40,616 bases of DNA from Limisphaerales bacterium (GTDB lineage: Bacteria; Verrucomicrobiota; Verrucomicrobiia; Limisphaerales; UBA11358): positions 1 through 40,616 of the forward strand of contig JANOBC010000045.1 of assembly GCA_031411455.1 (NCBI GenBank), in the 5' to 3' direction. Position numbers and translations under genes: made by a program. The stretch's first letter is position 1; every line of letters starts with the position of its first letter. Below, in pieces: positions 1 through 29,146 of this stretch. The notes below the pieces were generated by a model. It ran no database searches, was not told the origin of the DNA, and worked only from the letters and a program-made list of their open reading frames with translations.

Positions 1-45
1 GCGCGGCCGGGAGTCGTAAATCGGCGGCAAAGTTACGAGCGTGTG

Positions 46-804
46 TTAATTCAGCCCGTTGGTTCCGCGCACCGACTGGGCGTGCCAGTCGAAGAACAGC
101 ACGTTACGAAGATTGTTGCCATGGATAGCCGTGGGGGAGATTTCGTTAGCAGGCGGAGCTTTTTGCCAACTGGCAACCGATGGGGAATTATCGAGGATCA
201 AATCCACATCACGCAATGCGTAGAGGTCGCTCAAATTATTGGTATATTTTGTAAGCCCCAAAATTTTTAATGGCGGTGCTCCGGCAGGAAGAGCGGCAAT
301 CAGGCCGGGAGGATACCCAAAGGGCCTGGAGTAATCGTCAGATGATATTATTTTACCTCTCGTTGAATAAGTTATCCGCTTGCCGTCCAGAATCGGGGTT
401 TGAAGCTGTATTTTAATAGACGCTGGACAGGTAAAAATGGGAACGGAATTGTTTAAATCATTTACAGAAGTTCTAGCCGCAGGATCTGGCAGCCCCATAT
501 ATGGATAGAGGTAAACAACCGGCATGTATTTCATGGCCGTCCATACGCTGCCCGCCGCGCTGCCAGCCGCCACGCCGCGTTCCAACGGGCCGGCGCATAC
601 GTCTTTGTTGTCGTCCGCATACATCTGGAACGCCAAGCCCTGCTGCTTCATGTTATTGAGACACGCCGTTTGCACCGCCTTCTGTTTCGCCTTGGCGAGC
701 GCGGGCAGCAACATGGCGGCGAGGATGGCGATGATGGCGATGACTACGAGCAGTTCAATCAGGGTGAACGCGTGGCGGGAACGGATGGTGCAGGGATTGT
801 TCAT
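46..804 (-). CDS. Prepilin-type N-terminal cleavage/methylation domain protein (DUF1559 / H-X9-DG type)
   Basis: N-terminus [29 protein letters not shown], then CLNNMKQ and FTCPA; C-terminal [14 protein letters not shown], a variant of the H-X9-DG motif. Confidence 0.9.
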
Positions 805-807
805 TTT

Positions 808-2391
808 TTATTGTTCAGCTTTTGATTCCTTGAGTTGTGCCTTCAGCTTTTCCACCGGTAGTCTGGCCGTCCAGAAGATGGCATGAGGCACAAGGTCTTC
901 CAGCCCCTTCGTCTGTTCGGGATGCGGGCTGACGAAAACCAAGCGGCCTTTCTTGAACTCGGCCGCGAGCATCGCGGGTGAATTCACCATCACTCCGGCG
1001 GGTGAGCCGTTCGAGGCGACCTCGGTGCGGTAGTAGGCGAGCGCTTCAAAGTTCGGCAAAGTTTCCACACCGGCTGCGACCACGACCGGGCCGTTATGAT
1101 AAACCACGTCTAGGTTCGTCGCCGTCGTGCCAAGAATTTCCCGTCCGCGCGCGGTGGTTTCCACTTTGAGCGTGGTCCGTCCGCGCTGCCACTTGGGCGA
1201 AACCGTTTTTGCGTTCACAATTTTCAGGCTCCACGGATAACCGGCGGTGCAGAGATACGCGCCCGCGCAGATGCCGACGTAGCCGCCGCCGTTGGCAACG
1301 AAATCCACCACGTTGCTCCGGCCAACTTCGCCGATGGCCTCGGCTTCCTTGCTGCCGCTGCCGCCGCCGAAGATGATGACATCGTAATTGGTCACGGCGT
1401 TGGCTTTGACTTCATCGGGAGAAATTTCGGTGATGCTGGATTCTGGCGGATGATTGAGCCGCTTCATCAAACTCGGCGGGCCGGCGCCACCGGTTCCCGG
1501 GCCTTTGTAGAGCGCGATGCGGAGTCGCACGGTGTTTGTTGACGCTGCGGGCGCTGGCGTCGTGGCGGCAACGGCGATTAGGTGGAGAACCGAGTTGTCG
1601 GCGAGGATGGGGCGTCCGGGTATTTCGCCATCCATCATGCCGAGATGTGCCAGCAAGGTATGCACGAGGACTTCCTGCTGATGCACGCGCTTGTCCATCG
1701 GCTGCTTGGAGGTCGTCTCCAAAGTCATCGCGGGAATATGCAGGTGCTCACCACCAGCGCGGGCAAGGCTGCCGTCAATCGGCATATCGCGACGGACAAA
1801 TTTTAATTTTTCATCCGTGATTTCCCGGTTGACTGCCGCGAGCATTTTATCGGCAGCCGCCACGCCTTTCGGATTTGGAAAATTGATCACGGAACTGCCG
1901 ACACTTTTTTCGTTCACCTGATTAAAATCAAAACCCTCGTGCAAATCCAAGAGCCAGTCGGGCTTGAATTGCAACGCGAGGTTCCAAATCTCCGTGGCGA
2001 GTTCTCCGCGCGGGCCTTCGGTTTTTCCGGCGCGCGGATAGTTGCGGTTGAGGTTGTTCAAGTTGGTTTCCAAGCCGGGGATGAGCCGCTTGTTGGCAAT
2101 GAGTCCGGGAACATTGGCGCGCGGCACGACGACGAGCTTGCCTTTCAGCAACGGCCATTGGCGGATGACCTCGGCGGAGTTCGCGCCCGCAGGTTCGTTG
2201 CCGTGAACGCCGCCGCAGATGAAGATCGTCGGGCCGGGCACACCGGTGTCGCGCACATACCATTCCGTTGTGAAGCGAGTGCCCGGCAGTAGAAGATTGG
2301 TTGAGGACATTTCCGCCGCCGGAATTTTTTCCGCCGCCAAAACTCCGAGGCACAACAGAAGCGCCGCCAACTTGGTGTGTGATTTTTCCAT
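808..2391 (-). CDS. Secreted fusion of an M14 succinylglutamate desuccinylase/aspartoacylase-like zinc peptidase and a BPL_N-like class I glutamine amidotransferase domain
   Basis: Signal peptide; M14 motifs GGVHGNE, NLNRNYP, LDLHEG, TLET; C-terminal GGGSG, YVGICAGAY (nucleophile-elbow Cys) and SPHPE (His-x-Glu). Confidence 0.8.
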   Translation of the reverse strand: MEKSHTKLAALLLCLGVLAAEKIPAAEMSSTNLLLPGTRFTTEWYVRDTGVPGPTIFICGGVHGNEPAGANSAEVIRQWPLLKGKLVVVPRANVPGLIANKRLIPGLETNLNNLNRNYPRAGKTEGPRGELATEIWNLALQFKPDWLLDLHEGFDFNQVNEKSVGSSVINFPNPKGVAAADKMLAAVNREITDEKLKFVRRDMPIDGSLARAGGEHLHIPAMTLETTSKQPMDKRVHQQEVLVHTLLAHLGMMDGEIPGRPILADNSVLHLIAVAATTPAPAASTNTVRLRIALYKGPGTGGAGPPSLMKRLNHPPESSITEISPDEVKANAVTNYDVIIFGGGSGSKEAEAIGEVGRSNVVDFVANGGGYVGICAGAYLCTAGYPWSLKIVNAKTVSPKWQRGRTTLKVETTARGREILGTTATNLDVVYHNGPVVVAAGVETLPNFEALAYYRTEVASNGSPAGVMVNSPAMLAAEFKKGRLVFVSPHPEQTKGLEDLVPHAIFWTARLPVEKLKAQLKESKAEQ

Positions 2392-2451: not shown

Positions 2452-2536
2452 TCCCAACCGCGCGGAACGCGGTAAAATTCGGGTTAGTAATTTGCGACCA
2501 TCAACAAAACCAGCTCGCCGTCTACCCACCACGAAC

Positions 2537-5500
2537 ATGAAGCATCCTGCTCTGACTCCATCCGCCGGAAAAAATAAATTCATTATCGCCGGTTGGTTGG
2601 CGCTGCTGGTCGTCGGCGTTCTGTGGTGTGAGCACAGCCGCGCCGCTGACATCACTTGGACCGGCGGAACTAACGGCGTGAACACCGGCACGGCCTGGCG
2701 CAGCGCGACCAACTGGGATTCAATCACCGTGCCCACCAGCGCGGACAATGCGATTTTCGACAGCGCCGGAACCGTGACGACCTGTGCCATTGATTTGGGA
2801 GCCGCCGCCGGCACCCAGCAAATCGGCGCGGTGACGGTAGGCGCGGGACGCAGCGCCGCTCTGTCCATCCGCAATCTGACCACAAGCACCACCGACGGAA
2901 TTCTACGGTTGAATGGAGTCGGCGGAACGGTTCTGTCCAATGCCTCCACCACTGCCTCGCTGACCTTCACCAATGCCAGCACGGGCAAGTTGCTGGGTTT
3001 GGGACTCGCTACTGATGGAACGGTGTATTCCACTGATGGCGGCGGCACTGCCGGGCAAATCAGCGTCTTCAGCATTATCTCGGATGTCGGCGGTTCGCGC
3101 AGCATCACTAAAACCGGGAATGGCATTTTCTATTTGCGCGGCGTGAATACTTACTCTGGCACCACGACGGTATTGGCGGGCAACCTCCAAGTGGATGATG
3201 TCGGCACTATCGGCATCGGCACGAACACATTGTTTCTTTCCGGTGGCAATCTTCAATCCGGTGCGAACCGCAATGGCACGAGCAGCACGCCCATCGCCAA
3301 TCCGATTGTGATCACGCAGGACGCCTACATTCAGAACAAGACGGGCACAGCCACCACACGTTATCTGGCGCTGTCAGGAACGCTGAGTGGCAGCGCGGGA
3401 ACGTTGAAAATCGCCGACCCGACGAGTGCAGTGGGCAACACTTTTGCCGTCCGCTTTTTTAACACCAACATTAACTTCAGCCGCCCGATGATTGTCGGTG
3501 AATTTGGCTACGATCTGGCTTCCGCATTCTCGGTGATGGAAACTGCCAACACCAACGGCACGCAAATTTTCAGTGGCGACATCTCCGGCGTGGGCAGCAT
3601 CCGCCGGTTGAATCCTTTCACTTCGGGAGCCGCCGCTGGCACGACGGTTTTCTCCGGCAACAACACTTACTCGGGCGGCACGGCCATCACGGCAGGAACG
3701 CTGCTCGCCAACAATTCCACCGGTTCCGCCCTCGGCAGCGGTGCGGTCACGGTGACCGGCCTAAATTCCATTCTCGGCGGCAACGGTTCCGTCGTGGCAA
3801 CAACCACGGTGAACACCAACGCCACCGTTTCGCCGGGAACGAACGCCACGACCACCGCGAACTTGGGCATCAGTGATCTAACCTTGGGCGGCGGCGCGAA
3901 TTTTCTCTGGCAGATTAAGTCCGCCACTGGCATCGGCGGCACGGACTGGGATTTGATCACTTGCAGTTCCAGTTGGACCGATGCGGCCAGCAGCGGCAAT
4001 CCCATCACGATCAAAATTGATTCGCTCGGCGCGTCCCCGACCGGCTGGAATTCTTTGACCGCGCGCGACTACGTCATCATCCAGTCCAGCACTGCGAATA
4101 GTTTCGACGCCAGCCACTTTGCCCTCGACACGACCGCGTTCAGCGGAACCATCGGCGGCGTGTTCAGCTTGAGCGTCGTCAGCGGTGCGCTGCATCTGAT
4201 TTACACCCCGGCGGCGGACACGGTCATTAACGTCGCGTCCGGCTCGGTCACGCAAGGCGGTGTTTCGCCCACGCCCTATCCCAACATCAACGTCCCCGGC
4301 GGCATCGTGAAAGTCGGCAATGGCGAAGTGGTGCTGACGAATTCTGCGAATAGCTATCCCGGCTCAACGAAAATTTACGCCGGCACGGTGAGCCTCGCGG
4401 TGGACGCGCTCAACGGCTCCGGCGCGTTTGGCGCGGCCGCCACGGCGGTGCAACTTGGCAACATCACCGGCAACAGCAACGCCACGCTCAACATCAACAC
4501 CGCCGGCGTCACGATGGGTCGCTCGGTCGTCGTTCAATCCGGCAGCAGCGGCAGCAAGACCATCGGCACGAGCATCACGAGCGGCACGGCGACATTTTCT
4601 GGCGATGTCGCTTTGCAAGACAGCGCTTCACTGACCGCCCCTGTCGGCGGTTCCGTAAATTTTTCTGGCAACTTCACCGGCGCGGGCGGACTCACGCTCG
4701 GCGGCGGCGGCGCAATCACGTTGAGCGCGGTGAATAGTTACGCTGGCATCACGACGCTCGGCGGCGGCACGCTGAACTTGAACGACAAGGGGCTTGGCAC
4801 AAATACATTTACCATTTCCGCCGTCAGCACACTCGACAACACCAGCGCGAGCAGCGTGACGTTGAATAACTGCCCGCAAAACTGGAACGCCAATTTCTCC
4901 TTCACCGGCACGACGAATTTGAATCTTGGCTCCGGCCCGGTGACGATGAGCGCCTCGCGCACCTTGACCGTCAACGCCAGCACGCTCACCGTCGGCGGCG
5001 TGATTGGCGGCAGCGCCGGTCTTACCAAACTCGGCGCGGGAACGCTCGCGCTTTCCAGTTCGACGAACAGCACCTACACCGGCGGCACGACGAACGCGGC
5101 GGGAACTATTTCCCTCAATGGCACGGCCACGTTTGGCGACGGCACGGGAACGCTCGCGTTGAGCGGCGGAAATATTTTGAGCACCGCCACGCGTTCCAGC
5201 ACGCCGATTTCCAACTCCGTCGTGATGTCAGCGGACACGACGATCTACGGCAACAGCACCGCCACCGCGCCGTCCTCGCGCATATTTCCCTTCAACGGAA
5301 ACTGGACGCAATCCGCCGGCACACTGCGCGTTGGCAACACCGGTTCATCCAACAACACTTTCTTCGTGCGCCTGCTCGCGGGCAGCAGCTTCACCGGCGC
5401 CGCCATTGTCGGCGATCCGGCGTTCGACACGCCCGGCGCGATTTCTGTTTTGCAATTTTACCAAGATTCCAACGCCCCGGTGCAGACCGTGAGCGGCACG

Positions 5501-6658
5501 ATTTCCGGCAACGGCCAAGTCTGGCGCGGCAACCTCGGCGTCGGCGCGGGCGGCACGAGCATTGTCACCGGCAACAACACCTTCGCGGGCGGCTTCATCC
5601 TGAATTCTGGCACGCTCGGCCTCGGCCTCAACAGCACACCGACCACCGGCGTCGTGACTTCCGGCCCGCTGGGAACCGGCACGTTTGAAATCCAAAACGA
5701 TCCGGTCATCAACATCTTCGCCGTGGGCGGTGCGCGGACGATTGCGAACAACATCCTGCTCAACGGCGTGACGAACACTACCTTCACCGGCACGAACGCA
5801 CTGACGTTCAACGGCAGCGTCAACGTCGGCACGGTTGGAAAAACGTTGACGGTGAACAACACCGCGCCGGTTACGTTCGCCGGCACGATGACGAATACCG
5901 CTGCGCTCACGAAAGCCGGGTCGGGCACGCTGATTTTCTCCGGCGACAGCAGCTCGCGCACGAACGCCACCACCGTCAACGCGGGAACATTGCTCATTAA
6001 TAACCCCACCGGCAGCGGCACGGGCAGCGGCGATGTGACGGTGAATTCCGGCGGCACACTCGGCGGCACGGGCGCGATTGGTGGCGCGGTCACCGTGAAT
6101 GCGGGCGGCATCATTTCCGCTGGGGCGTCCATCGGCACGCTCACCATCAACAGCAATCTTACGCTCGTCGGCAACGTGCTGGTTGAGGTCAATAAATCTC
6201 TTTCGCCTTCGAACGATCTCATCGTTGTGAACGGTTTGCTGACCAACGCTGGCACGGGGACCATTACTGTCAGCAACCTTGGCCCGGCGCTGGCGGTCGG
6301 GAATAAATTCCAAATTTTCAGCGGCGCGGTGGCGAACGGCGGCGCGCTCGCCGTCACTGGCGGCGGTGTGAACTGGACGAACACGCTCGCGGTGGACGGC
6401 AGCATCGCGGTGCTTTCCATCGTGTCATCGGTGAACACGAATACCTTCACCATCGGCGCCAGCGTCAGTGGCAATAATCTCAACTTGAGCTGGCCGCCGG
6501 ATCGCCTGGGCTGGAAAGTCCAGACGCAAACGAACACTTTGAGCAGCGGCTTGAACACCAACTGGGTCACGCTGCCGGCCACGGCCACAGTGACGAATTA
6601 TACCGTCATCATCAATTCCGCCAATCCGACGGTGTTCATCCGCATGGTTTATCCGTGA
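2537..6658 (+). CDS. Large secreted autotransporter-associated beta-strand repeat protein without a beta-barrel
   Basis: ATG at 2537 preferred; signal peptide ending SRA-ADITW; many LTKxGxGTLxLxGxNTYSGxT repeats; C-terminal LSWP..LGW..QTN..NW..VFIRMVYP domain. Confidence 0.85.
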   Translation: MKHPALTPSAGKNKFIIAGWLALLVVGVLWCEHSRAADITWTGGTNGVNTGTAWRSATNWDSITVPTSADNAIFDSAGTVTTCAIDLGAAAGTQQIGAVTVGAGRSAALSIRNLTTSTTDGILRLNGVGGTVLSNASTTASLTFTNASTGKLLGLGLATDGTVYSTDGGGTAGQISVFSIISDVGGSRSITKTGNGIFYLRGVNTYSGTTTVLAGNLQVDDVGTIGIGTNTLFLSGGNLQSGANRNGTSSTPIANPIVITQDAYIQNKTGTATTRYLALSGTLSGSAGTLKIADPTSAVGNTFAVRFFNTNINFSRPMIVGEFGYDLASAFSVMETANTNGTQIFSGDISGVGSIRRLNPFTSGAAAGTTVFSGNNTYSGGTAITAGTLLANNSTGSALGSGAVTVTGLNSILGGNGSVVATTTVNTNATVSPGTNATTTANLGISDLTLGGGANFLWQIKSATGIGGTDWDLITCSSSWTDAASSGNPITIKIDSLGASPTGWNSLTARDYVIIQSSTANSFDASHFALDTTAFSGTIGGVFSLSVVSGALHLIYTPAADTVINVASGSVTQGGVSPTPYPNINVPGGIVKVGNGEVVLTNSANSYPGSTKIYAGTVSLAVDALNGSGAFGAAATAVQLGNITGNSNATLNINTAGVTMGRSVVVQSGSSGSKTIGTSITSGTATFSGDVALQDSASLTAPVGGSVNFSGNFTGAGGLTLGGGGAITLSAVNSYAGITTLGGGTLNLNDKGLGTNTFTISAVSTLDNTSASSVTLNNCPQNWNANFSFTGTTNLNLGSGPVTMSASRTLTVNASTLTVGGVIGGSAGLTKLGAGTLALSSSTNSTYTGGTTNAAGTISLNGTATFGDGTGTLALSGGNILSTATRSSTPISNSVVMSADTTIYGNSTATAPSSRIFPFNGNWTQSAGTLRVGNTGSSNNTFFVRLLAGSSFTGAAIVGDPAFDTPGAISVLQFYQDSNAPVQTVSGTISGNGQVWRGNLGVGAGGTSIVTGNNTFAGGFILNSGTLGLGLNSTPTTGVVTSGPLGTGTFEIQNDPVINIFAVGGARTIANNILLNGVTNTTFTGTNALTFNGSVNVGTVGKTLTVNNTAPVTFAGTMTNTAALTKAGSGTLIFSGDSSSRTNATTVNAGTLLINNPTGSGTGSGDVTVNSGGTLGGTGAIGGAVTVNAGGIISAGASIGTLTINSNLTLVGNVLVEVNKSLSPSNDLIVVNGLLTNAGTGTITVSNLGPALAVGNKFQIFSGAVANGGALAVTGGGVNWTNTLAVDGSIAVLSIVSSVNTNTFTIGASVSGNNLNLSWPPDRLGWKVQTQTNTLSSGLNTNWVTLPATATVTNYTVIINSANPTVFIRMVYP

Positions 6659-6670
6659 TGAATTTTTATC

Positions 6671-6706
6671 CGCAAAACCCGCGCTGGCAACGGCGCGGGT
6701 TTTGCG
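6671..6706 (+). terminator. Stem-loop (terminator or mRNA-stabilising hairpin)
   Basis: CGCAAAACCCGCGCTG-GCAA-CGGCGCGGGTTTTGCG: 16-bp stem with one G-T pair and a GNRA loop, between two co-oriented genes. Confidence 0.65.
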
Positions 6707-6718
6707 CGAAATTTTACC

Positions 6719-8905
6719 GTGATTTTTCCGTCCCTTAAAAACCTTTTTGCCGTGCTGTTCGCTGCGGTGGGAATTTTTTTATTCCTGTCCGCCGCGCGGG
6801 CGCAGACCTACGTTCCCGGCAGCAGTTATTTTGGCCGGAGCAATTACGTCCAATACATCGCGGGCGATCTGCCGATCATCATTTCCGCGCCGCACGGCGG
6901 CGCATTGACCCCGGCGGAAATTCCCGACCGCGTGGACGATGGCTCCGATCCCAACTACACCATTGTGACCGACTCGAACACTGAGGAAACCGCACTCGCC
7001 TTCCAGTCCGTTTTCGCCGCCACGTTCGGCCACAGCCCGCACGTCATCACCATGCGCTTGAGGCGGACGAAGGTTGACGCCAACCGCAGCCTCGCGCAGG
7101 GCGTTTATCAGACAAATACGTTTGCGACGCAGGCGTGGAATGAATTTCAAAACTGGATCAACACCGGCAGCAACGCCGCCGTGGCGTTGAGCGGACGCGG
7201 CTTCTACATTGACCAGCACGGCCAAGGCCACACGATCCAGCGGCTCGAACTCGGTTACCTCCTTTCCAGTTCGCAACTGATGAATTCAGACGCGACGCTC
7301 AACTCGACGACCTGTCGCAACCAGTCCAGCATCCGCACGCTCGGCACGCTCGTGAGCAATCAATTCGCGATTCCGTTCTCGCAAATTTTGCGCGGGAGCA
7401 ACAGTTTTGGCGGACTCATGGAAACGCGCGGTTACGATTCCGTTCCCAGCCCGCTGTATCCCGATCCCGGCAGCGGCAATCCGTATTTCGACGGCGGCTA
7501 CAATACCGACACGCACACCTCGCAAAGCGGCGGCCCGATGGACGGGTTGCAGATCGAGGCGAACCTCACTGGCGTGCGCGACACGTCGGCCAACCGCGCC
7601 GCCTACGCCCTAGCCGTCGCGCAGTCGCTGGATTTTATTTTCACCAATTACTACGGCATTGATTTGAGGCTGGCCGCGCCGTGCATCTGGGGCATCGGTT
7701 CGGGAAAATTTGCGACGGCGGCGAATTGGTCCAACGGCATCGTGCCGGTCGCGGGAAATTATCTTTTGTTCAGCGGCGCGGGCGGCGCGGTCAGCAACAA
7801 TCTCGCCGCGCTCACCACGGGCACGGGAAGAATCTATTCGCTGCTCTACGCCACGAACTGCGGCGGCAGCTACACGAACTACGGCAACCCCATCAGCCTC
7901 GTCGCGGGCGTCACAAATTTTTCTGCGTTCAGCCAGAACATCAGTAACGCCATCACGCTGCTCGCCGCGCAGAGTTTTTTCGCGAGCAACGCGCCGCTAA
8001 ATCTTTTCGGCAACCTCACGAACAGCGGATTTAATCTGTCATTCAATGCCGCAACCAATCTCACGGTGAGCGGCGTTATCAGCGGCGCGGGTGGACTCGT
8101 CAAAAACGGCGGCGGCGTTTTGACTTTGAATGCCGCGAACACTTTTTCCGGCGCGACGACGAATCTTGCGGGGCTTTTGCTCGCGAATAATTCCACCGGC
8201 AGCGCGAACGGCGGCGGCGCGCTGTTCGTCAATTCCGGCGCGACGCTCGGCGGCACGGGCATTGTCAGCGGGCCGGTTTCCATTTCCGGCAGCCTCGCGC
8301 CCGGCAATCCCATCGGCACGCTCACCGTTACGAATGGACTGATTTTCACCAATGGCGGCAGCTATTTCTGGACGCTCGCCGCAAACGCCACCAATTCGCC
8401 CGGCGTGAACTTTGACCAAATTATTTTGTCCGGCGGCACTCTGGTTTTGAATTCCAATTCACCGCTCGTCATTGCCTTCACCAATTCCGCCACCGCGCCC
8501 GCGACCAACGTGGCTTTCTGGCAGTCGCCGCGTTCGTGGAAAATTATTTCACTCGGCGCGGCGGCAACAAATCTTGGTCTCGCGAAGTTTGCTTCAATTT
8601 CTAATAATAATTTCACTGCTGGAAAGTTTGTCAGCACGGCGGACGCGCAAGGAAATGTGCTGCTGAATTTTCTGCCCACGCCGTCGCCAGTCGTTTCGCC
8701 CGCATTACCCGGCGCTGGCACGGCCAGCGTGAATGTGAGTTGGAGCGCCATCGCTGGCGTGACGTATCAGTTGCAGTCCAGCACGAATCTCGCGACGACC
8801 AACTGGCTGCCGCTCGGCAATGTCACCGCCGCTTCCACCAACGCGACGCTGTCAGACACGAACGCTGGTTCGCCGCAAAAGTTTTACCGCGTGGTCATTC
8901 CTTGA
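6719..8905 (+). CDS. Secreted N-formylglutamate amidohydrolase-like zinc hydrolase fused to autotransporter-associated repeats
   Basis: Signal peptide (ARA-Q); IIISAPHGG, VTDSNT, KVDANR, IDQHGQ, YFDGGY, LQIE; then LVKNGGGVLTLNAANTFSG repeats and a C-terminal W..YQLQSSTNL..W..FYRV domain. Confidence 0.75.
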   Translation: MIFPSLKNLFAVLFAAVGIFLFLSAARAQTYVPGSSYFGRSNYVQYIAGDLPIIISAPHGGALTPAEIPDRVDDGSDPNYTIVTDSNTEETALAFQSVFAATFGHSPHVITMRLRRTKVDANRSLAQGVYQTNTFATQAWNEFQNWINTGSNAAVALSGRGFYIDQHGQGHTIQRLELGYLLSSSQLMNSDATLNSTTCRNQSSIRTLGTLVSNQFAIPFSQILRGSNSFGGLMETRGYDSVPSPLYPDPGSGNPYFDGGYNTDTHTSQSGGPMDGLQIEANLTGVRDTSANRAAYALAVAQSLDFIFTNYYGIDLRLAAPCIWGIGSGKFATAANWSNGIVPVAGNYLLFSGAGGAVSNNLAALTTGTGRIYSLLYATNCGGSYTNYGNPISLVAGVTNFSAFSQNISNAITLLAAQSFFASNAPLNLFGNLTNSGFNLSFNAATNLTVSGVISGAGGLVKNGGGVLTLNAANTFSGATTNLAGLLLANNSTGSANGGGALFVNSGATLGGTGIVSGPVSISGSLAPGNPIGTLTVTNGLIFTNGGSYFWTLAANATNSPGVNFDQIILSGGTLVLNSNSPLVIAFTNSATAPATNVAFWQSPRSWKIISLGAAATNLGLAKFASISNNNFTAGKFVSTADAQGNVLLNFLPTPSPVVSPALPGAGTASVNVSWSAIAGVTYQLQSSTNLATTNWLPLGNVTAASTNATLSDTNAGSPQKFYRVVIP

Positions 8906-8940
8906 AACTGTCAACCGGGAATGAAATCATCAACTCCGCC

Positions 8941-10197
8941 ATGACTTCCCTCCTAAAAAAGATTTCGCTCACGCAATGGATTCTGGTCGCCATCGTTGTC
9001 GGCGTCACGGTCGGCTGGCTGTTTCCGGATGGATCACAAAACCTCAAGGTCGTCTCCAATCTTTTTCTTCACCTCATCAAGTGCATCATCGTGCCGCTGA
9101 TTTTCAGCACGCTCGTCGTTGGCATCGCGGGCCACACGGACGACATCAAGGCCGTCGGACGTCTCGCTCTGAAGTCCATCATCTATTTTGAGATCGTTAC
9201 CACGCTCGCGCTGTTTGTCGGGTTGGGCGCAGTTAATTTAATTCGTCCTGGCGATGGCATTGTGCTCGCCAAAAGCGCGGATGTTGGACAGAAATTCGCG
9301 CAGACCAAGGTGACGCTCGAAGGTGTGGTGGAACATCTCGCGCCGCAAAGTTTTTTCGACGCCGCTGCGCGCAATGACGTGTTGCAGGTAGTTATCTACG
9401 CGATTTTCTTCGGCATCGCGCTCACCCAGGTCACGGGCAAGCCGAAGCACACAGTGCTGGATTTTTTTGAGGGCATCACGGCGGTGATGTTCAAGTTCAC
9501 CGGGTTGGTCATGTGGTTTGCGCCGCTCGGTGTCGGGGCGGCGATCGCGGTCGCCGTCGGCGCGAATGGTCTGGGCATCCTCGCCAATCTCGGCAAGCTC
9601 GTGCTCACGCTCTACGGCGCGCTGCTGGTGTTCGTGGTGTGTGTGCTGATTCCGGTGATGTGGATTGCGCGCATCCCCGTGGTAAATTTTTTCCGCACGG
9701 TGCGGCAGCCGGCGCTGCTCGCGTTTTCCACGGCCACCTCCGAGGCGGCGCTACCCGACGCGTTGCGGCTCATGGAAAAATTTGGTGTGCCAAAACGCAT
9801 CGTCGCGTTCGTGCTGCCGACGGGTTACTCGTTCAACCTCGACGGTTCGACGCTGTATCTCGCGCTGGCGTCGGTGTTCGTCGCGCAGGCGGCGGGCATC
9901 GAATTGGATTTCAAGACGCAGTTGATGATGATGCTCACGCTGATGCTCACCAGCAAAGGCGTCGCCGCCGTGCCCCGCGCGTCGCTGGTGATTTTGTCCG
10001 GCACGCTCGTCACGTTCGGACTGCCGCTGGAAGGCGTCGCGGTGATTCTGGCGGTGGATGCGTTCCTCGACATGGCGCGCACGTCCATCAATCTCGTCGG
10101 CAACTGCCTCGCCTCGGCCGTGATGGCGCGCTGGGAGGGTGAGTTTGATGACGCTGCGGCGAATGGAGTTGCAACGGAACCGCCGGTCACTAGCTGA
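8941..10197 (+). CDS. gltP: Dicarboxylate/amino acid:cation symporter (GltP/GltT-like glutamate/aspartate transporter)
   Basis: ATG at 8941; motifs IIVPLIFSTLVVGIA, AFSTATSEAALP, LPTGYSFNLDG, LTSKGVAAVPRAS, DMARTSIN. Confidence 0.9.
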   Translation: MTSLLKKISLTQWILVAIVVGVTVGWLFPDGSQNLKVVSNLFLHLIKCIIVPLIFSTLVVGIAGHTDDIKAVGRLALKSIIYFEIVTTLALFVGLGAVNLIRPGDGIVLAKSADVGQKFAQTKVTLEGVVEHLAPQSFFDAAARNDVLQVVIYAIFFGIALTQVTGKPKHTVLDFFEGITAVMFKFTGLVMWFAPLGVGAAIAVAVGANGLGILANLGKLVLTLYGALLVFVVCVLIPVMWIARIPVVNFFRTVRQPALLAFSTATSEAALPDALRLMEKFGVPKRIVAFVLPTGYSFNLDGSTLYLALASVFVAQAAGIELDFKTQLMMMLTLMLTSKGVAAVPRASLVILSGTLVTFGLPLEGVAVILAVDAFLDMARTSINLVGNCLASAVMARWEGEFDDAAANGVATEPPVTS

Positions 10198-10219
10198 AAT
10201 TAGAACAATAAAAATTACG

Positions 10220-11914
10220 ATGTTTTTCTCATCTCCTAGCTTGTTGAACTCATCTGCGAGAATTTCTGTTTTAATTTTTTGCCTCGCCGCGAAGAGTATT
10301 TTTGCGGAAGCGCCAACGCACGGCATGGTTTCCTCAACGTATCCGCTCGCCACGGATGCGGGGGTGGACGTTTTGAAATCCGGCGGCAATGCGGTTGACG
10401 CGGCCGTGGCCGTCGGCCTCACGCTCGGCGTGGTGGACGGCCACAACTCCGGCATCGGCGGCGGTTGCTTCATGCTCATCCGCCGCGCGAATGGCGAAAT
10501 CATCGCGATTGACGGACGCGAGAAAGCGCCCGCCGCCGCCACGCGCGATATGTTCGTGCGCGAGGGCAAGGCCGACACGACGTTGAGCCAGACGGGGCCG
10601 CTGGCGAGCGGCGTGCCGGGAGAAATCGCGGCGTTCGATTACGCGGTTAAAAACTTTGGGAAGAAAAAATTTGGCGAACTCTTCGCCCCGGGGGCGAAGA
10701 TCGCCGAAGAAGGTTTTCCGTTGAAGGAGATTTATGCGGCGCGGTTAAAACTTGAAGCGGGCAACCTGAATCAATTTGACGATTCGCGGAAAATTTTTCT
10801 GACCAACGGTCTTCCGTTCAACGTTGGCGACATTTTGAAACAGCCTGACCTCGCCAAGACTTACCGCGCGCTGGCGGAGCAGGGGAGCGACTGGTTTTAT
10901 CGCGGCCCGTTTGCGCAGGCGACGGCGGCGTGGATGCAGGCGCATGGTGGCATCATGACCACGCAGGACTTTGCCGATTACTCCATCAAGCTGCGCGAGC
11001 CGGTGTCCACCGACTATCGCGGCTACAAAATCGTGACCTTCTCGCCACCGAGTTCTGGCGGGGTGCATTTGCTGGAGATGCTCAATACGCTGGAACATTT
11101 CGACCTGAAACAATTGGATGCGGCCACGCGGCTGCACGTTATCGCCGAAACGATGAAGCTCGCATTCGCCGACCGCGCGTATTGGTTGGGCGATCCTGAT
11201 TTTGTAAAAGTGCCGCGCGGACTCATCGCGAAAGATTATGGCGCGGCGCTTGCCAAAAAAATCAGCCTTGACCGCGCGGCGGAAGTTTCCGGCCACGGCA
11301 CACCGTCGGATGCCGCGACAAATGTTTTCTCCGATAAGCACACGACTCATTTTTCCGTGGCCGATGCGGAGGGCAATTGGGTCGCTTGCACCTGCACGGT
11401 GAATACTGGGTTTGGTTCTAAAGTCGTCGTGCCCGGCACCGGCGTTTTGTTGAACAACCAGATGGATGATTTTTCTGTGCAGGCGGGCGTGCGGAATCAT
11501 TTTGGTTTGGTCGGCGCGGAGGCAAACTGCGTTGCGCCGGGCAAGCGTCCGCTGTCGAGCATGACGCCGACGATTGTTTTGAAAGATGGCCAGCCCATCA
11601 TCGCGCTCGGCGCAGCGGGCGGACCGAAAATTATTTCCACCGTGCTGCTTGAATTGGTTGAGCTGCTCGACCTAAACCACACGCCCGCCGAGGCGGTGGC
11701 CGCGCCGCGTATTCATCAACAATGGTCGCCGGATGAATTGCTGGTCGAGCCATCCCTTTCCCTGGAGCTGCAAAAATCACTGGCTGGCCGTGGCCAGAAA
11801 ATCAGAGTGAGCAAAATCGGTTCAACCTCACACATCGTGGCGCGCAGTGCCGACGGGAAGGGTTTCATTGGCGCCGCCGACCCGCGCAGCGACGGCACGG
11901 CGACGGGTTGGTGA
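10220..11914 (+). CDS. ggt: Gamma-glutamyltransferase
   Basis: GGNAVDAAVA, SGIGGG, IDGRE, PPSSGG, catalytic Thr in HTTHFSV, LLNNQMDDF, KRPLSSMTP, GAAGG, ADPR; N-terminal signal-like segment; start at 10220 inferred. Confidence 0.93.
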   Translation: MFFSSPSLLNSSARISVLIFCLAAKSIFAEAPTHGMVSSTYPLATDAGVDVLKSGGNAVDAAVAVGLTLGVVDGHNSGIGGGCFMLIRRANGEIIAIDGREKAPAAATRDMFVREGKADTTLSQTGPLASGVPGEIAAFDYAVKNFGKKKFGELFAPGAKIAEEGFPLKEIYAARLKLEAGNLNQFDDSRKIFLTNGLPFNVGDILKQPDLAKTYRALAEQGSDWFYRGPFAQATAAWMQAHGGIMTTQDFADYSIKLREPVSTDYRGYKIVTFSPPSSGGVHLLEMLNTLEHFDLKQLDAATRLHVIAETMKLAFADRAYWLGDPDFVKVPRGLIAKDYGAALAKKISLDRAAEVSGHGTPSDAATNVFSDKHTTHFSVADAEGNWVACTCTVNTGFGSKVVVPGTGVLLNNQMDDFSVQAGVRNHFGLVGAEANCVAPGKRPLSSMTPTIVLKDGQPIIALGAAGGPKIISTVLLELVELLDLNHTPAEAVAAPRIHQQWSPDELLVEPSLSLELQKSLAGRGQKIRVSKIGSTSHIVARSADGKGFIGAADPRSDGTATGW

Positions 11915-11930
11915 GGACTTGGGCGGGAGT

Positions 11931-11950
11931 CATATAACAAATGTTATATG
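11931..11950. promoter_or_regulatory. Putative transcription-factor operator
   Basis: Perfect inverted repeat CATATAACA-AA-TGTTATATG upstream of the 12076 gene; same motif as 2434-2451. Confidence 0.7.
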
Positions 11951-12075
11951 GACGCTAAAATTGAAAGATGGGATGATTTCCCCGATTTGCTAGCCTAGGG
12001 AAAATCCGCAGCCAAAATTAGCAATCAAGTTTGTCAAACCGACCCGCTCAATCTGAACCCTGACTACTCCCAACC

Positions 12076-15000
12076 ATGAAAAAATTCCTTAATGTAATAT
12101 GTATTGTCATCGCGCTATTTTTCTCTGGCGCCGCCAACACATCTCTCGCGCAATCGGTTTGGACCAACGTTAGCGCCAGCACGACTTGGCTGGGTGCCTT
12201 AAATTGGAATCCAAACGGCTCGCCGACAAACGGGACGGAAGTCGCTCAGTTCAATGGCACCGCCCCCACCAGCGGCACCGTCGGCATTGGGATAAACATG
12301 AACACGCTGGGAGGACTGTGCAGGGTCGGGGCCATTGAAGTGACCAGCGCCCGCAGCAGCTTGAATTTGATAATTGCGGACAGCAGCACGACGGTCAGCG
12401 GCAGCTTGCAGCTCAATGGCGCTACGGTGAACGGTGTGGCCAATACAATTCTTCGCAACGCTGGAGCGGGCACGACTACCTTGATCCTGACGAACACTCT
12501 AACCACCGGCAATCAGACCATGTCCGTTAGCAACAATCTGGCAAATGCGCTCATTGACGCCAGCTCGGCCATCACCATTTACAGCATCATCACTGGCAAT
12601 GGCTTTACGAAGACCGGTGCGGGAGCTTTGACCTTGGTGGCGTCCAATCTTTATTCGGGCAACACGATCATCAGCAATGGCATCCTCGGGATCAATGACG
12701 GCGGCTACCTGAACAACTCGACCCTAGTGCTGGCCGGCGGCACGTTGCAGCGCAATGCGCAAAACATCACCCCGTCACGTGCGAACGCGTATCGTTCGCC
12801 GTTGGTGGTGTCCAACAGTTCGACCGCGCAAACGACGACCACCACCACCCGCACGATTAATTTCGAGGCTCCGTTCACCGCCGTGGCCGGCACCACGTTG
12901 ACCGTGACTAATACGGGCGCGGGCGGCACCAACCGTTTCCGTTTTTATGCCGGCGGTTTCACGAACGCAGGAAACATTGTTTTGGCTCCCAACATCAGCG
13001 GCGCCCTCGGCCGTGTGCAGTTGGAACTCTACAACTCCAACAACCCGGCAGGCGGCTCGGACATCCTTTTCTCGGGCATCATCAGCGGCGCTGGCACGCT
13101 TTATAAAAACATTGATGTCAACCCCGGCGGTAACGTCATTCTTTCGCAACCGAACACCTATACGGGCGGCACGGAAATTCGCGGCGGCTTTTTCGGTCTC
13201 GCCACAAACAACGCGCTCGGCTTTGGCAACGTCATCATCGGCAACGACCCGAACCCCATCGGGCTTTATGCCGTTGGCGCGGCCCGCTCGTTCACTAACG
13301 ATGTGACGGTGGATACGTCCTCGGCCAACACCACCAACCTCCAAATCAATGGCGCGCAAGACTTGACCTTGTCCGGCCGCGTTTTGATTCATAGCAACCT
13401 GATGTTTTTCACGGTCAGTAACACCGCCACGACCACGTTCTCCGGCACGGTGACGAACGCCTTTGCCAATGCGCTGGGTATCTCCAAACAAGGATCCGGC
13501 AAGCTGGTTTTGAGCGGCACGGCGGCTTACAGCGGAACCACCCGCGCGGCGGCTGGCACGCTCGCCTTGAGCGGGGCGGCGGTGCCGAACAATACCACCA
13601 ACCTCACCGTCTTTGGCGGTGCGACGCTGGACATTTCCGCCTTGAGCGGCACTTGGACGCTGGCAAATTCGCAATCACTGCAAGTCGCCAGCCCAGTCGC
13701 TTCCGCCACGCTGATTGGCAGCGGCTCGGTTGGATTGACGCTCGGCAGCACGAGTCCGCTGGTGCTGGCGTATTCCAATGGCATTCCCTCGCTCACCGTC
13801 ACCGGCGGCGTGCTGACTGTGGCGAGCGGCAATCCCGCGACGGTCACGGTCGCCAATGGCGGCTTCGGCTTGCCGGCGGGTGATTACAAATTGATTTCCA
13901 CCAGCAGCGGCGGTGCCGTGGCCGGCACCGCGCCGACTTCGGTCACGGTCAATGGCGATGGTCTTGGTGGCATTTCGCCCGTGCTGGTGATTTCCAACGC
14001 GGAACTTTATCTGCACATTGACGTATCGCCGACGCCGCCTGCCGTGCCCGTGGTGAAAGCCGCTTCCAGCACCAATATCACCGGCTTCACCGCCAGTTGG
14101 AATTCCGCCAGCGGCGCGACCGGCTACCGGTTGGATGTTTCCCTGGTGAACAATTTCAGTTCGTTTGTTTCCGGCTACAACGACCTTGATGTGGGCAACG
14201 TCGTCTCGTTTGCAGTGACCGGCTTGAGTCCGGCTACGACCTATTTTTATCAGGTTCGCGCCACGAACACTTTTGGCACGAGCGCCAGTTCGTCCGTCAC
14301 GAATGTGACCACGCTCGTCGCGCCGTATTTATGGAACGCGGGTAATGGCAACTGGAGCGATTCCTCAAGCTGGCAATACGCCAACGTCCCCGTCAACGGC
14401 GTCAGCCCCGGCTTCACCGGCGCGGGCGGCAATTCCACCAATGACCTTTCCAGTCTGCTGCTTAATTCAATCACGTTCTCGAACGGTGCCGGGGCTTACA
14501 CGGTTTCTGGCAACGGCCTCGTCGTGAGCAACGGCATTCTCAACAACTCGACGGCGGGGGAAACCATTTCCGCGCCACTGACCTTGGGGGCGGCGCAGAC
14601 CTTGAACGCTGCTGTCGGCGCGCTAAATATTTCTGGCCCGGTCACCAATGCCGGCAACACGCTTACTTTCAACGCCGCCGCCACTAGCACCAACAGCGGT
14701 TCCATCTCCGGCAGCGGCGCGCTGATTAAAAATGGTGCCGCCACGCTATTCTTGTCCGGTGCGAACACCTACACAGGTGCGACCACGAACAATGCGGGCA
14801 ACCTACAAGTGGCTGGCGGCTCCGCGCTGCCTGACGCGGCGACTCTGGTGCTGGCAAACACCGCCGGTGTCACCTTGACGGTTGATGCGAATGAAACCGT
14901 TGGTTCGATTTCCAGCGGCGACAACACCACGATTGCGCTCGGGGCAAACAATTTGACCGTTGGCGGCGACGGAACCTCCACCACGAACACCAGCGCCATC

Positions 15001-17184
15001 ACCGGCACCGGCAAGCTGGTCAAGACCGGCGCGGGAACCATGGTCTTGAACAAGGCCACGGCCTATGGCTCCAGCTTCAGCCTGCGCGTGGAAGGCGGCA
15101 CGGCTGACTTGAATCGCGGCGGCAATACATTGGCCGGAATCATTGGCAGCGGCAACACCGTTGAGCTGGCCGGCGGCACGTTACAATTGAGCGCGAGCCT
15201 GCAGGCCAATTTCGGAGTGACCTTCAACGCGTTGAACGTGATGGCGGATTCGACCTTCAGTTTCAATCGCACGGGCACTTCCAGCAGCCAGAGTCCGTTG
15301 ATTACCGCGCCGCTCAACTTCACGACCAATGCGAATTTGAGTTTCATTTATAACGCCCAGATAACCGGCGGCACCTCCACGTTCACCAACTCAACCATGA
15401 ATTTGCTTCAGGGCAATGCCACGCTCACGCTGGGCAGCTATGGGATCACTCTCGCCAGCCCCATCGGCGAATCCGGCGGCAGTTATTCGCTCACCAAGGC
15501 CGGGCCGGGCCAGTTGAACTTGAATGCCATCAACACCTATTCCGGCAACACCACCAATCTGGCGGGCATTTTGGCAGTCAATAGCACAGGCACTTTCGGC
15601 AATGGCAGCGGCTCGCTGGTTCTGGTCGGTGGCGACATCCTGTCAACCGGCACGCGCGCCAGTTCGCCCATCGCCAACCCGGTTGTGATCGCGTCGAGCG
15701 GCACCAATACCATCTACGGCGACAGCACCGCCACCGCCCCATCCACGCGCATCTTTCCGTTGAGCGGATCGTTGGGCGGCAGCACCGGCACACTGCGCGT
15801 CGGCAACAAGGGACTGGCAAATAATACTTTCGAGCTGCGTTTGAACGGCGGTGGTTACACGTTCACGCCGCCGGTCATCGTGGGCGATCCCAGTTTTGAC
15901 ACCAATGGAACCATCACCCTGCTGAAATGTTACAACGACACCAACACCGCCGCCCAAACTTTCAGCGGCGTGATTTCCGGCAACGGCAGCCTGGCGCGGG
16001 ATGCGTCGGTCCCTGGTTCCGGTGGCACCACGATTTTGTCGGGAGCCAACACTTATTCCGGTGGCACCACGATTTCCGCTGGATTCATCGGCTTCGGCAC
16101 CAATTCGACCTCGTCCGCCGGAGTCGTTACCAGTAGTCCAGTCGGCACGGCGACTCTGGAAATCAAAGATGATCCCAGCGTCGGCTTCTTCGCCTCCGGC
16201 GCGGCCCGGGTTGTGGAAAATAAAATTTTCCTGAATGGCGTCACCAACTTGCAAATCATCGGCACGAACGAACTGACGCTGGCCGGCTCTTGGAACATCG
16301 GCTCGGTGGCCAAAATGCTCACCGTGAACAACACCGGCCTGACGAGAATTTCTGGCGTCATCTCGAACATCGCCGCGCTCACCAAGGCCGGCAATGGCAC
16401 GCTCGCGTTGACCGCCACGAATCTTTTCACCGGCAACCTTACCATCGCGGGCGGCACGCTCGCGTTGAGCGGCAGCGGCTCCGTCTCGAACACGTCGGTC
16501 ATCACGATTGCGAACAATGCAACGCTCGACGCCAGCGGCCGCACTGATGGCACATTCACCTTGAACTCCGGCCAGTCGCTGAACGGCGTTGGCTCCGTGA
16601 TCGGCAGCGTCGTTGCCGCCAGCGGCTCGACGACCGCGCCCGGTTTTGCCTCGGCTCTCGGCGCGCTGACGGTTTCCAGCAACACCACCCTCGCTGGCCT
16701 GACTTACATGAAAATCAACCGTGACACCGCGACGAATGATGTGCTGTCCGCCGGCGGAACTTTGACGGAAGGCGGCACGCTGACGGTCACGAACATTTCC
16801 GGCACACTCGTGGCGAACGATACCTTCAAACTCTTCAGCGCCGGCATTGGTTTCAGCGGCAGCTTCGCGACAACGAATTTGCCCGCTCTCACTACGGGAT
16901 TGAAATGGGACACCACCACCCTCGCCAGCAGCGGCATCATCAAGGTAGCCGTGACCGTCAACACGAATTCGCCCACGCTCACCAATTCAGTGACCGGCGG
17001 CGTGCTGACCCTGACTTGGCCGACCGATCGCATCGGCTGGCGCTTGCAGGTGCAGACCAACACGCTCGCCGACGGCCTCGGCACGAACTGGCAGGACGTG
17101 GCTAATTCAACCACCACCAATCAGGTCAACGTGACAATTGATGCGGCCAGCGCGACGGTTTTCTACCGTATGGTTTATCCGTGA
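12076..17184 (+). CDS. Giant secreted autotransporter-associated beta-strand repeat protein with a fibronectin type III domain
   Basis: Signal peptide; many TKxGxGxLxLxxxNTYxG repeats; FN3 at about 14035-14315 (FTASW..GYRLDV..GLSPATTYFYQVRA); C-terminal LTWP..IGWRLQVQTN..NW..VFYRMVYP, paralogous to the 2537 gene. Confidence 0.85.
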   Translation: MKKFLNVICIVIALFFSGAANTSLAQSVWTNVSASTTWLGALNWNPNGSPTNGTEVAQFNGTAPTSGTVGIGINMNTLGGLCRVGAIEVTSARSSLNLIIADSSTTVSGSLQLNGATVNGVANTILRNAGAGTTTLILTNTLTTGNQTMSVSNNLANALIDASSAITIYSIITGNGFTKTGAGALTLVASNLYSGNTIISNGILGINDGGYLNNSTLVLAGGTLQRNAQNITPSRANAYRSPLVVSNSSTAQTTTTTTRTINFEAPFTAVAGTTLTVTNTGAGGTNRFRFYAGGFTNAGNIVLAPNISGALGRVQLELYNSNNPAGGSDILFSGIISGAGTLYKNIDVNPGGNVILSQPNTYTGGTEIRGGFFGLATNNALGFGNVIIGNDPNPIGLYAVGAARSFTNDVTVDTSSANTTNLQINGAQDLTLSGRVLIHSNLMFFTVSNTATTTFSGTVTNAFANALGISKQGSGKLVLSGTAAYSGTTRAAAGTLALSGAAVPNNTTNLTVFGGATLDISALSGTWTLANSQSLQVASPVASATLIGSGSVGLTLGSTSPLVLAYSNGIPSLTVTGGVLTVASGNPATVTVANGGFGLPAGDYKLISTSSGGAVAGTAPTSVTVNGDGLGGISPVLVISNAELYLHIDVSPTPPAVPVVKAASSTNITGFTASWNSASGATGYRLDVSLVNNFSSFVSGYNDLDVGNVVSFAVTGLSPATTYFYQVRATNTFGTSASSSVTNVTTLVAPYLWNAGNGNWSDSSSWQYANVPVNGVSPGFTGAGGNSTNDLSSLLLNSITFSNGAGAYTVSGNGLVVSNGILNNSTAGETISAPLTLGAAQTLNAAVGALNISGPVTNAGNTLTFNAAATSTNSGSISGSGALIKNGAATLFLSGANTYTGATTNNAGNLQVAGGSALPDAATLVLANTAGVTLTVDANETVGSISSGDNTTIALGANNLTVGGDGTSTTNTSAITGTGKLVKTGAGTMVLNKATAYGSSFSLRVEGGTADLNRGGNTLAGIIGSGNTVELAGGTLQLSASLQANFGVTFNALNVMADSTFSFNRTGTSSSQSPLITAPLNFTTNANLSFIYNAQITGGTSTFTNSTMNLLQGNATLTLGSYGITLASPIGESGGSYSLTKAGPGQLNLNAINTYSGNTTNLAGILAVNSTGTFGNGSGSLVLVGGDILSTGTRASSPIANPVVIASSGTNTIYGDSTATAPSTRIFPLSGSLGGSTGTLRVGNKGLANNTFELRLNGGGYTFTPPVIVGDPSFDTNGTITLLKCYNDTNTAAQTFSGVISGNGSLARDASVPGSGGTTILSGANTYSGGTTISAGFIGFGTNSTSSAGVVTSSPVGTATLEIKDDPSVGFFASGAARVVENKIFLNGVTNLQIIGTNELTLAGSWNIGSVAKMLTVNNTGLTRISGVISNIAALTKAGNGTLALTATNLFTGNLTIAGGTLALSGSGSVSNTSVITIANNATLDASGRTDGTFTLNSGQSLNGVGSVIGSVVAASGSTTAPGFASALGALTVSSNTTLAGLTYMKINRDTATNDVLSAGGTLTEGGTLTVTNISGTLVANDTFKLFSAGIGFSGSFATTNLPALTTGLKWDTTTLASSGIIKVAVTVNTNSPTLTNSVTGGVLTLTWPTDRIGWRLQVQTNTLADGLGTNWQDVANSTTTNQVNVTIDAASATVFYRMVYP

Positions 17185-28857: not shown

Positions 28858-29146
28858 GCGCGGATGAAAACATTTTTCGGCGCGGGAATAAATCACGAAT
28901 GGACACCAATAAACAGGAATGCCATCGGAATTGGTTGCGTCGGAATATGCCGTGAAGGCCGTGTGATTGCTTGGATGGTGGCATTTGTCGCGCTGCGATA
29001 AATTTTACCTGCGAAGCAGGCACTGGCGGCGGGCAAACTTCAAGCGCGGTCATCCAACTCTTCCGTCGCCTGACGCTGTTGGGCGTAATTCCACCCCTCA
29101 CCCCAACCCCTTTCAAGGGGAGAGGGGGAAGCGATTCGAGTTGCGG

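Follow-up and report, generated by a model that had tools for sequence, protein, structure and literature searches.

What is the role of a module that recurs four times in two giant repeat proteins encoded among genes with a glutamate theme? The question is raised by contig JANOBC010000045.1 of the Limisphaerales bacterium assembly GCA_031411455.1, whose 40,616 nucleotides are called here the window (contig C45 of a 3.54-Mb genome in 444 contigs, 91% complete). The original prediction made on this DNA was that the module carries a ladder of arginines along a β-helix face that binds or cleaves a polyanion, which would fit polyglutamate. We favour another reading, to which we give a probability of roughly 0.55, namely that the module is a structural cassette and not a polyglutamate-specific arginine ladder; we infer its structural role and the geometry of its side chains from family conservation and a predicted fold.

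According to this reading, a lineage-restricted cassette of about 185 residues with a PATR motif (PF12951) at each end would form part of some, but not all, of the large secreted PATR proteins in one order of Verrucomicrobiota. Its arginines would mainly hold the helix together, two of them at sheet corners, one at the surface, where it would form a pair with an acidic residue of the following rung, and one in a turn. The cassette would act as a rigid stalk or spacer of a surface protein, and perhaps would also aid export and folding, as PATR does in autotransporters.

Four related copies of the module lie in two paralogous PATR proteins

The two giant proteins are called here P0001 (2537..6658, forward strand) and P0002 (12076..17184, forward strand, 1702 residues). 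The open reading frame of P0001 as listed runs from a TTG at 2492 to 6658 (1388 residues), but translation more probably starts at the ATG at 2537, after which comes a hydrophobic, signal-like stretch; a signal-peptide-like N-terminal segment can be read in the sequence of both giants. Their scores with the PATR model PF12951 (71.2 bits for P0001, E 7.1e-20, and 79.9 bits for P0002, cut-off 27) and with TIGR02601 (65.6 bits, E 2.4e-18, and 76.7 bits, cut-off 19.85) assign both to the PATR repeat proteins. When P0002 was compared to P0001 by BLASTP, the C-terminal 685 residues were found to be 44% identical (E 1e-122) and the N-terminal 438 residues or so 29% identical (E 8e-11), values which identify the two proteins as paralogs. 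Each giant contains two modules, one per unit (N-terminal and C-terminal), and the window has four copies because two paralogous giants each carry two cassettes.

As delimited by the family profile, copy 1 (3134..3700; E 2.4e-59, positions 2-187 of 187) belongs to the N-terminal unit of P0001 and copy 2 (5060..5614; E 3.8e-61) to its C-terminal unit, whereas copy 3 (12637..13191; E 1.6e-45), a divergent subtype, and copy 4 (15520..16086; E 1.3e-66), the one used for the structure model, belong respectively to the N-terminal and C-terminal units of P0002; all four are on the forward strand. The modules are therefore about 185 residues long, slightly longer than the 175-180 residues encoded by the stretches first named (3140-3679, 5069-5593, 12643-13170 and 15529-16065). 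Copies 2 and 4 are the most alike in BLASTP (56.5% identity over 177 residues, E 1.6e-60), followed by copies 1 and 4 (41.6% over 185 residues, E 1.8e-32), copies 1 and 2 (40.9% over 181 residues, E 1.6e-26), copies 3 and 4 (33.9% over 186 residues, E 2.5e-13), copies 2 and 3 (35.5% over 107 residues, E 6.8e-6) and copies 1 and 3 (31.6% over 196 residues, E 1.1e-5). Since these E-values are composition-adjusted, and given the 26 invariant columns in the four-way alignment, the four copies are judged to be related well beyond their shared composition. The four-fold recurrence announced by the original prediction is thus borne out, with E-values from 1.1e-5 to 1.6e-60.

So are three further observations made at the outset. 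Every copy opens and closes with an NxY/FxG motif, in agreement with its description as lying between NxYxG/NxFxG repeats. The surroundings are rich in glycine, threonine, serine and asparagine, which make up 48.8-49.9% of both giants (lysine and arginine, 3.2-3.5%). Lastly, copies 2 and 4 are alike even at the DNA level, with 331 identical positions out of 525 (63%), and the DNA pattern that had been quoted for them is matched exactly at 5245-5289 and 15714-15758 and nowhere else, none being expected from 100 shuffles.

A search of the window's genome with PF12951 located PATR motifs at the module ends, for instance LTKAGPGQLNLNAINTYSGNTTNLAGILAV at 15490..15579 (forward strand); the others are found at 3104-3193, 3635-3706, 5021-5113, 12604-12687 and 16021-16083. 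These matches overlap both ends of copies 1 and 4 but only the 5' ends of copies 2 and 3; no PF12951 match was listed at the 3' ends of the latter, though the motifs NTFAGG and NTYTGG are present there. A further stretch of P0002 (residues 893-1014; 14752..15117, forward strand) is weakly module-like and partial, with 19.1 bits against the family hidden Markov model (HMM) over profile positions 2-116 only; it was already faint with an HMM built from the four copies.

The module is predicted to fold as a generic right-handed β-helix

Window positions 15517-16086 (copy 4) were modelled with AlphaFold2, yielding a mean predicted local distance difference test (pLDDT) of 95.4 and a predicted template-modelling score of 0.91. 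The model is free of helix and has 16 short strands arranged in repeating groups of three, with 21-29 residues to a rung; the whole corresponds to a generic right-handed parallel β-helix of seven to eight rungs. Comparison with 48,161 chains by VIA-align gave 34 chains at Z ≥ 8. The highest scores were obtained with the PL3 pectate lyase 1ee6 (Z 11.2), the adhesin 4wa0 (11.1), 7jvi (10.7), Awp3b (10.2), Hbp 3ak5 (10.0) and Pet 4om9 (9.6), so that the scores form a plateau on which no one family stands out. Among the best 50 VIA-align rows, all those aligned at a root-mean-square deviation (rmsd) of 3-4.5 Å are right-handed β-helices; the other high-Z rows are left-handed β-helix acyltransferases, at an rmsd of about 12 Å. 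Foldseek found no match in the PDB at E ≤ 0.001 (95 at E ≤ 10), and the module profile retrieved from the PDB sequences chance matches to antibody light chains only (E 0.35-0.51).

Three of the four basic sites are a family signature and the fourth belongs to PATR

The original prediction also placed basic residues at four matching positions of each copy. This holds for place 2 (TRYL/SRIF/TRTI/TRIF) and place 3 (VRF/VRL/FRF/LRL), which are invariant arginine columns in the four-way alignment, and for place 4, a single column with R/R/K/R. It does not hold entirely for place 1, where copies 1, 2 and 4 have an arginine but copy 3 an asparagine, its PSR arginine lying five residues downstream. 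The arginine codons are found at 3269-3271, 3359-3361, 3452-3454 and 3605-3607 in copy 1, at 5192-5194, 5279-5281, 5369-5371 and 5525-5527 in copy 2, and at 15655-15657, 15748-15750, 15838-15840 and 15997-15999 in copy 4. The corresponding codons of copy 3 are those of the asparagine (12763-12765), the offset arginine (12778-12780), two arginines (12850-12852 and 12940-12942) and a lysine (13105-13107).

Conservation across the family was then examined in 104 domains, each with a match that spans 95 or more positions of the profile and scores at least 30 bits. Arginine is kept at core positions 15 (93/104), 42 (69/104) and 72 (92/104), which are the first three places, and two further core sites are partly basic (R82, 60/104; R60, 41/104). 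Also conserved in the core are G6-G7, N22-P23, G55-T56-L57, N61, F69, P83, L100 and N104. This pattern supports the view that the first three arginines are a genuine family signature under selection, and the conserved glycine, asparagine, proline and arginine residues can be taken together as that signature. The fourth site is of another nature: in 31 of the 32 PATR matches of the genome that begin at model position 1, lysine occupies the same position (x-x-K), which identifies the fourth basic site, by alignment, as the ordinary canonical 'LTK' position of PATR.

In the numbering of the structure model, the four sites are R47, R78, R108 and R161. When the first strand of each rung is taken as one sheet, this sheet contains R78 (rung 4), R108 (rung 5) and R161 (rung 7), whereas R47 belongs to a turn of rung 2. 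The family alignment (52 sequences, copy 4 first: the four window copies and 48 of 79 flanked matches) has hydrophobic residues at positions 80, 82, 105, 109, 136 and 159 in 50-52 of its 52 rows, at position 138 in 42 and at position 107 in 36. Because of this alternation of hydrophobic and polar columns, position 108 should face outward, in register with position 81 on the rung before and position 137 on the rung after. On successive rungs the register of the exposed arginine is occupied by proline (29/52), arginine (49/52) and an acidic residue (26/52) or glutamine (9/52), which suggests a charge pair rather than an arginine stack. R78 would share the register of F105 at the leading corner of the sheet, and R161 would lie at its trailing corner. 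Read in this way from DSSP secondary-structure strings and sequence alternation, the sites of rungs 2, 4, 5 and 7 would each have a lateral position of their own. The net charges of copies 1 to 4 are 0, 0, +1 and +3, and the mean over the 52 family members is -0.7.

The original interpretation is therefore retained in part: the β-helix is predicted with confidence and three of its arginines are conserved family-wide, but different lateral positions, with a register of proline, arginine and acidic residue, seem more likely than stacking on one face.

The cassette is a distinct family restricted to a subset of PATR proteins

The 112-residue core that separates the PATR motifs (copies 1 and 4) has no match to any Pfam family even at E ≤ 10, and the module is accordingly regarded, on its sequence, as a distinct family of its own without a Pfam model. 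A profile of the four cores run against 1,835,955,588 representative proteins matched 108 at E ≤ 1e-3, of which 34 reach E ≤ 1e-10 and 2 reach E ≤ 1e-30; almost every match spans the whole core. A word-index search with the core of copy 4 returned 12 proteins including the query, all of them PATR proteins of 1373-1867 residues, and the ESM Atlas yielded PATR-type clusters only.

In the window's genome, 15 open frames contain PATR. Among its 19,279 six-frame open reading frames the four-copy HMM detects the two giants only, and with the 52-sequence family HMM two more frames are detected, on C427 (63 bits) and on C57 (37 bits), so that the module is present in 4 of the 15 PATR frames. These two more distant members (G000:C427:152-691, reverse strand, and the G000:C57 frame 3-1391, forward strand) are both on short contigs. 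With the window's own genome included in the counts, 6 of 401 genomes sampled from the phylum have the module by the broad profile (E ≤ 1e-10) and 3 of 401 by the narrow one (E ≤ 1e-5), compared to 21 of 201 genomes sampled from the order. The possibility that the module is generic to all PATR proteins was rejected in view of the 4 of 15 frames and of the minority of genomes that have it.

A maximum-likelihood tree was built from 57 module cores of the 43 lowest-numbered proteins. In this tree the modules group by their position in the protein and not by protein: copies 2 and 4 share a C-terminal clade (support 96/80), copy 1 joins the N-terminal modules of proteins similar to P0001, and copy 3 is in a third clade with P0042, P0043 and P0036. 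The four copies thus represent, according to the tree, three old subtypes, each with orthologs in other genomes. A recent tandem duplication of the four copies was rejected on these grounds.

A search of the literature, from its listings and from the PATR passages of PMC9977779, retrieved nothing in print on the cassette and no paper on 'autotransporter-associated beta strand repeat' in Verrucomicrobia; the matches listed for PATR with Verrucomicrobiota deal with microbiomes, to judge by title and abstract.

The cassette travels with PATR proteins rather than with glutamate genes

The genes around the giants follow the order AstE/AspA-like and GATase-like protein (808-2391, reverse strand), P0001, a formylglutamate-amidohydrolase (FGase)-like PATR protein (6719-8905, forward strand), an SDF glutamate/dicarboxylate symporter of the GltP/DctA type (8740-10197), GGT (10139-11914) and P0002. 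Up to 20 kb around module matches in other genomes were collected, giving 36 loci that represent 35 distinct places, L012 and L045 appearing to be the same contig. They were searched by tblastn (E ≤ 1e-5) with the GGT, the symporter, the AstE/GATase protein and the FGase-like domain of the window. Only two places gave matches, one in the same genus (G474:C23, the place also called L012) and one in a different family of the order (G520:C165). In the 33 others, none of the four was found within the fetched DNA. A Pfam scan of six of these non-matching loci identified gyrB, a glucodextranase-like protein, GT2, MFS, response regulators, AdoHcy hydrolase and SAM synthetase, as well as an HD protein, GH16, a sulfatase, Sir2 and thioredoxins. 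As far as these neighbourhoods indicate, the cassette travels with PATR proteins rather than with glutamate genes. Were the module generic to repeat proteins regardless of locus, the original prediction would lose its ground; independence from the locus is largely what is observed, but the module is far from being a part of every PATR protein.

The locus is conserved in the two places that do match. L012 (2823-14440) keeps the gene order of the window up to GGT with 63-83% identity, and no counterpart of P0002 was seen after GGT; an M28 peptidase lies upstream of its conserved gene set. In G520:C165 the gene set is partly kept, the contig ending inside GGT and the symporter not being matched. 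P0001-type orthologs with two modules are present in both.

The N-terminal 300 residues of the 6719-8905 protein (domain at about 6800-7720) match FGase (PF05013) weakly (E 0.015), and the domain has at least 1053 homologs, many of them annotated as PF05013 or fused to T9SS or Ig-like domains. Its AlphaFold2 model (pLDDT 92.7) is closest by Foldseek to FGase structures (2q7s, E 5.3e-6), then to cell-wall amidases and carboxypeptidases, and matches the phage poly-γ-glutamate (PGA) hydrolases 3a9l and 21dc at E 4e-3 with a probability of 0.98-0.99. As a whole, this protein appears as a secreted FGase-like domain of zinc-amidohydrolase fold fused to a PATR β-helix and a C-terminal domain. Given these structural matches and the conservation of the locus in two other genomes, its substrate may plausibly be a glutamyl or N-acyl-glutamate compound, polyglutamate being one candidate among several; this theme attaches to the neighbouring enzymes and not to the module. 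A literature search on poly-γ-glutamate, Verrucomicrobia and GGT showed no such locus among the entries listed.

Other features of the giants and of the window

An FN3 domain (14068-14307, forward strand; Pfam E 1.5e-5) lies between the N- and C-terminal units of P0002, and P0001 is without such a spacer. A Pfam scan of both whole giants at E ≤ 0.01 found no autotransporter barrel family, the families detected being PATR and, in P0002, fn3 and Pur_ac_phosph_N. The C-terminal β-barrel translocator that defines classical type Va autotransporters is thus lacking from the domain content predicted for the giants. They end instead in a C-terminal domain of about 70 residues common to 22 open frames of the genome, in each of which it ends exactly at the stop codon. 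These include all three PATR proteins of the window (6431-6655, 8678-8902 and 16960-17181) and 19 more frames. The three window copies terminate in F-[YI]-R-[MV]-V-[YI]-P, the Pfam match is faint (F5_F8_type_C_2, E 0.022), and module proteins of at least 13 fetched loci also end in it. The domain has the look of a sorting or anchoring element placed at the C-terminus, for a secretion route other than that of autotransporters.

The symporter and GGT open reading frames as listed overlap their upstream neighbours by 166 and 59 bases, and the Pfam domains start at residue 77 in both; for these two reasons, the true starts are probably downstream of the first listed start codons. Elsewhere in the window, a DUF1559 pilin, in keeping with the phylum, is encoded at 46-804 (Pfam/TIGR scan), and a single frame of 578 residues at 27160-28896 (reverse strand) combines an RluA-type pseudouridine synthase domain (residues 24-172) with an RlmI/RlmK-like SAM methyltransferase domain (residues 276-571).

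Discussion

The closest known relatives of the giants are the PATR proteins themselves: the giants score well over the cut-offs of PF12951 and TIGR02601, the modules begin and end in a PATR motif and the last basic residue is at the PATR 'LTK' position. The module differs from them by its 112-residue core, which no Pfam family matches, and by its presence in 4 of 15 PATR frames only. In fold it resembles the stalks of type Va autotransporters (Hbp 3ak5, Pet 4om9, Hap 3syj, IgA1 protease 3h09, Ssp 8e7f and Ag43 7koh), which share the right-handed, three-faced β-helix at Z 7.9-10.0 over 148-164 residues; according to the PATR passages of PMC9977779, the Ssp stalk contains PATR. However, these stalks are 9-12% identical to the module, the giants are devoid of a translocator domain, the host is an environmental Verrucomicrobia lineage, and the signature R15, N22-P23, R42, N61, R72 and N104 is specific to the cassette.

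Such a stalk-like cassette might chiefly serve export, as an enlarged PATR unit that nucleates β-helix folding during secretion. Its PATR boundaries, with R/K at the canonical basic site of the terminal PATR, are compatible with this role, and the passages of PMC9977779 that cite Doyle et al. 2015 report PATR as important for the efficient secretion of passengers. We nevertheless hold this to be improbable as its main function, given that the secretion route must differ for proteins without an autotransporter barrel and that 11 of the 15 PATR frames of the genome do without the module.

The structural reading has several observations to contend with. The exposed arginine (108) is kept in 49 of 52 members that are 31 to 73% identical to copy 4, and the first and second arginines in 93 and 69 of 104 domains; this conservation of a polar surface is above what a passive stalk usually needs, so that a ligand or partner may be shared by the family. 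The three arginines may form a basic patch on or beside one sheet across rungs 4-7, within the limits of a geometry derived from DSSP strings and alternation. As to the surveys, several context loci were cut by contig ends at 5-14 kb, and the genome frequencies are lower bounds, 8 to 16 first-look candidates having been scored per genome. There is some room, though we think it rather unlikely, for a generic adhesin-type face on which an Arg/Asn site would bind a widespread ligand of anionic or polar nature, for instance a polysaccharide of the cell envelope or of the matrix, either the same in all loci or accommodated by site flanks that vary with the locus. The family-wide conservation of arginine at three sites together with N22, N61 and N104 (core numbering), the DSSP cycle that puts the three sites of rungs 4, 5 and 7 in the same sheet or next to it, and the adhesins among the top structural neighbours (4wa0, 7o9p, 7o9q, 5nxk and 3syj) all speak for it; the net charge close to zero, the acidic neighbour of the exposed arginine in 26 of 52 members and the generic β-helix plateau of the structural matches do not. 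The C-terminal β-helix domains of tapirin-type adhesins (4wa0 and 6n2b) reach Z 11.1 and 8.1 and are among the first-ranked non-significant matches of Foldseek, but with E 0.9-1.7 and no sequence relation to the module.

PL3 catalysis uses Lys/Arg on a β-helix face, Ca-binding acidic residues being another feature of this family. With the PL3 pectate lyase Pel-15 (1ee6), a similarly small β-helix, as its best structural match (Z 11.2, rmsd 3.2 Å, 157 of 197 residues) and further pectate lyases (4u49, 3b90 and 7xks) among the VIA-align matches, the module could be a cryptic catalytic β-helix, for example a small PL3-like polysaccharide lyase core with an arginine as base or neutraliser. This seems very doubtful to us. 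The Z score ties with those of adhesins and autotransporter stalks and is not separated from unrelated β-helices, the identity to 1ee6 is 9%, and the cores of copies 1 and 4 match no lyase family in Pfam at E ≤ 10, which gives no indication of PL3 membership. Nor is there a conserved acidic cluster for a Ca site, only D29 reaching 69/104, and two copies per protein in a stalk-like arrangement would be unusual for an enzyme.

The arginine ladder of the original prediction, binding or cleaving poly-γ-glutamate for the neighbouring GGT, symporter and amidohydrolase genes, has in its favour the glutamate theme of the locus, with its AstE/AspA-like and GATase-like protein, FGase-like PATR fusion, GltP/DctA-type symporter and GGT, and the maintenance of this locus in G474:C23 and G520:C165 (the symporter being matched only in the former). 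We now consider it quite improbable. The claim that the module acts on a polyanion fitting polyglutamate is not supported: the four genes are missing at 33 of 35 places, the fourth 'arginine' is a generic PATR lysine site, the module is net-neutral and an in-register stack is not suggested by the model. The families known to degrade γ-PGA are the PghP-type zinc hydrolases, the GGT/CapD type and the NlpC/P60 PgdS type. The module resembles none of them, being a predicted β-helix without Pfam match as opposed to α/β enzymes; PghP (3a9l) and N-formylglutamate amidohydrolase (2q7s and 2odf) are relatives of the N-terminal domain of the 6719-8905 protein and bear no likeness to the module. Our literature search found no paper joining β-helix, polyglutamate and depolymerase. 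A more speculative version, which we regard as a long shot, would make of the cassette an undescribed ligand-recognition or catalytic domain with R47, R78, R108 and the PATR residue R161 as a putative anionic-polymer site. In the GGT locus, two such sites per giant would act at the cell surface to capture or nick poly-γ-glutamate or a different glutamyl polymer, whose fragments would feed the FGase-like amidohydrolase, GGT and the symporter.

Among the genes of Verrucomicrobiota, those for large PATR proteins rank with the longest and the most poorly understood. A defined cassette of 185 residues that folds well and is marked by signature residues makes it possible to divide these proteins into domains, can serve as the seed of a family model and provides an expression construct. 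If polymer binding by its arginines were shown, it would represent a new domain for surface capture; on present evidence, it is an ordinary structural part of β-helical surface proteins, and the stronger lead for the use of glutamyl polymers is the conserved set of enzymes that adjoins the modules.

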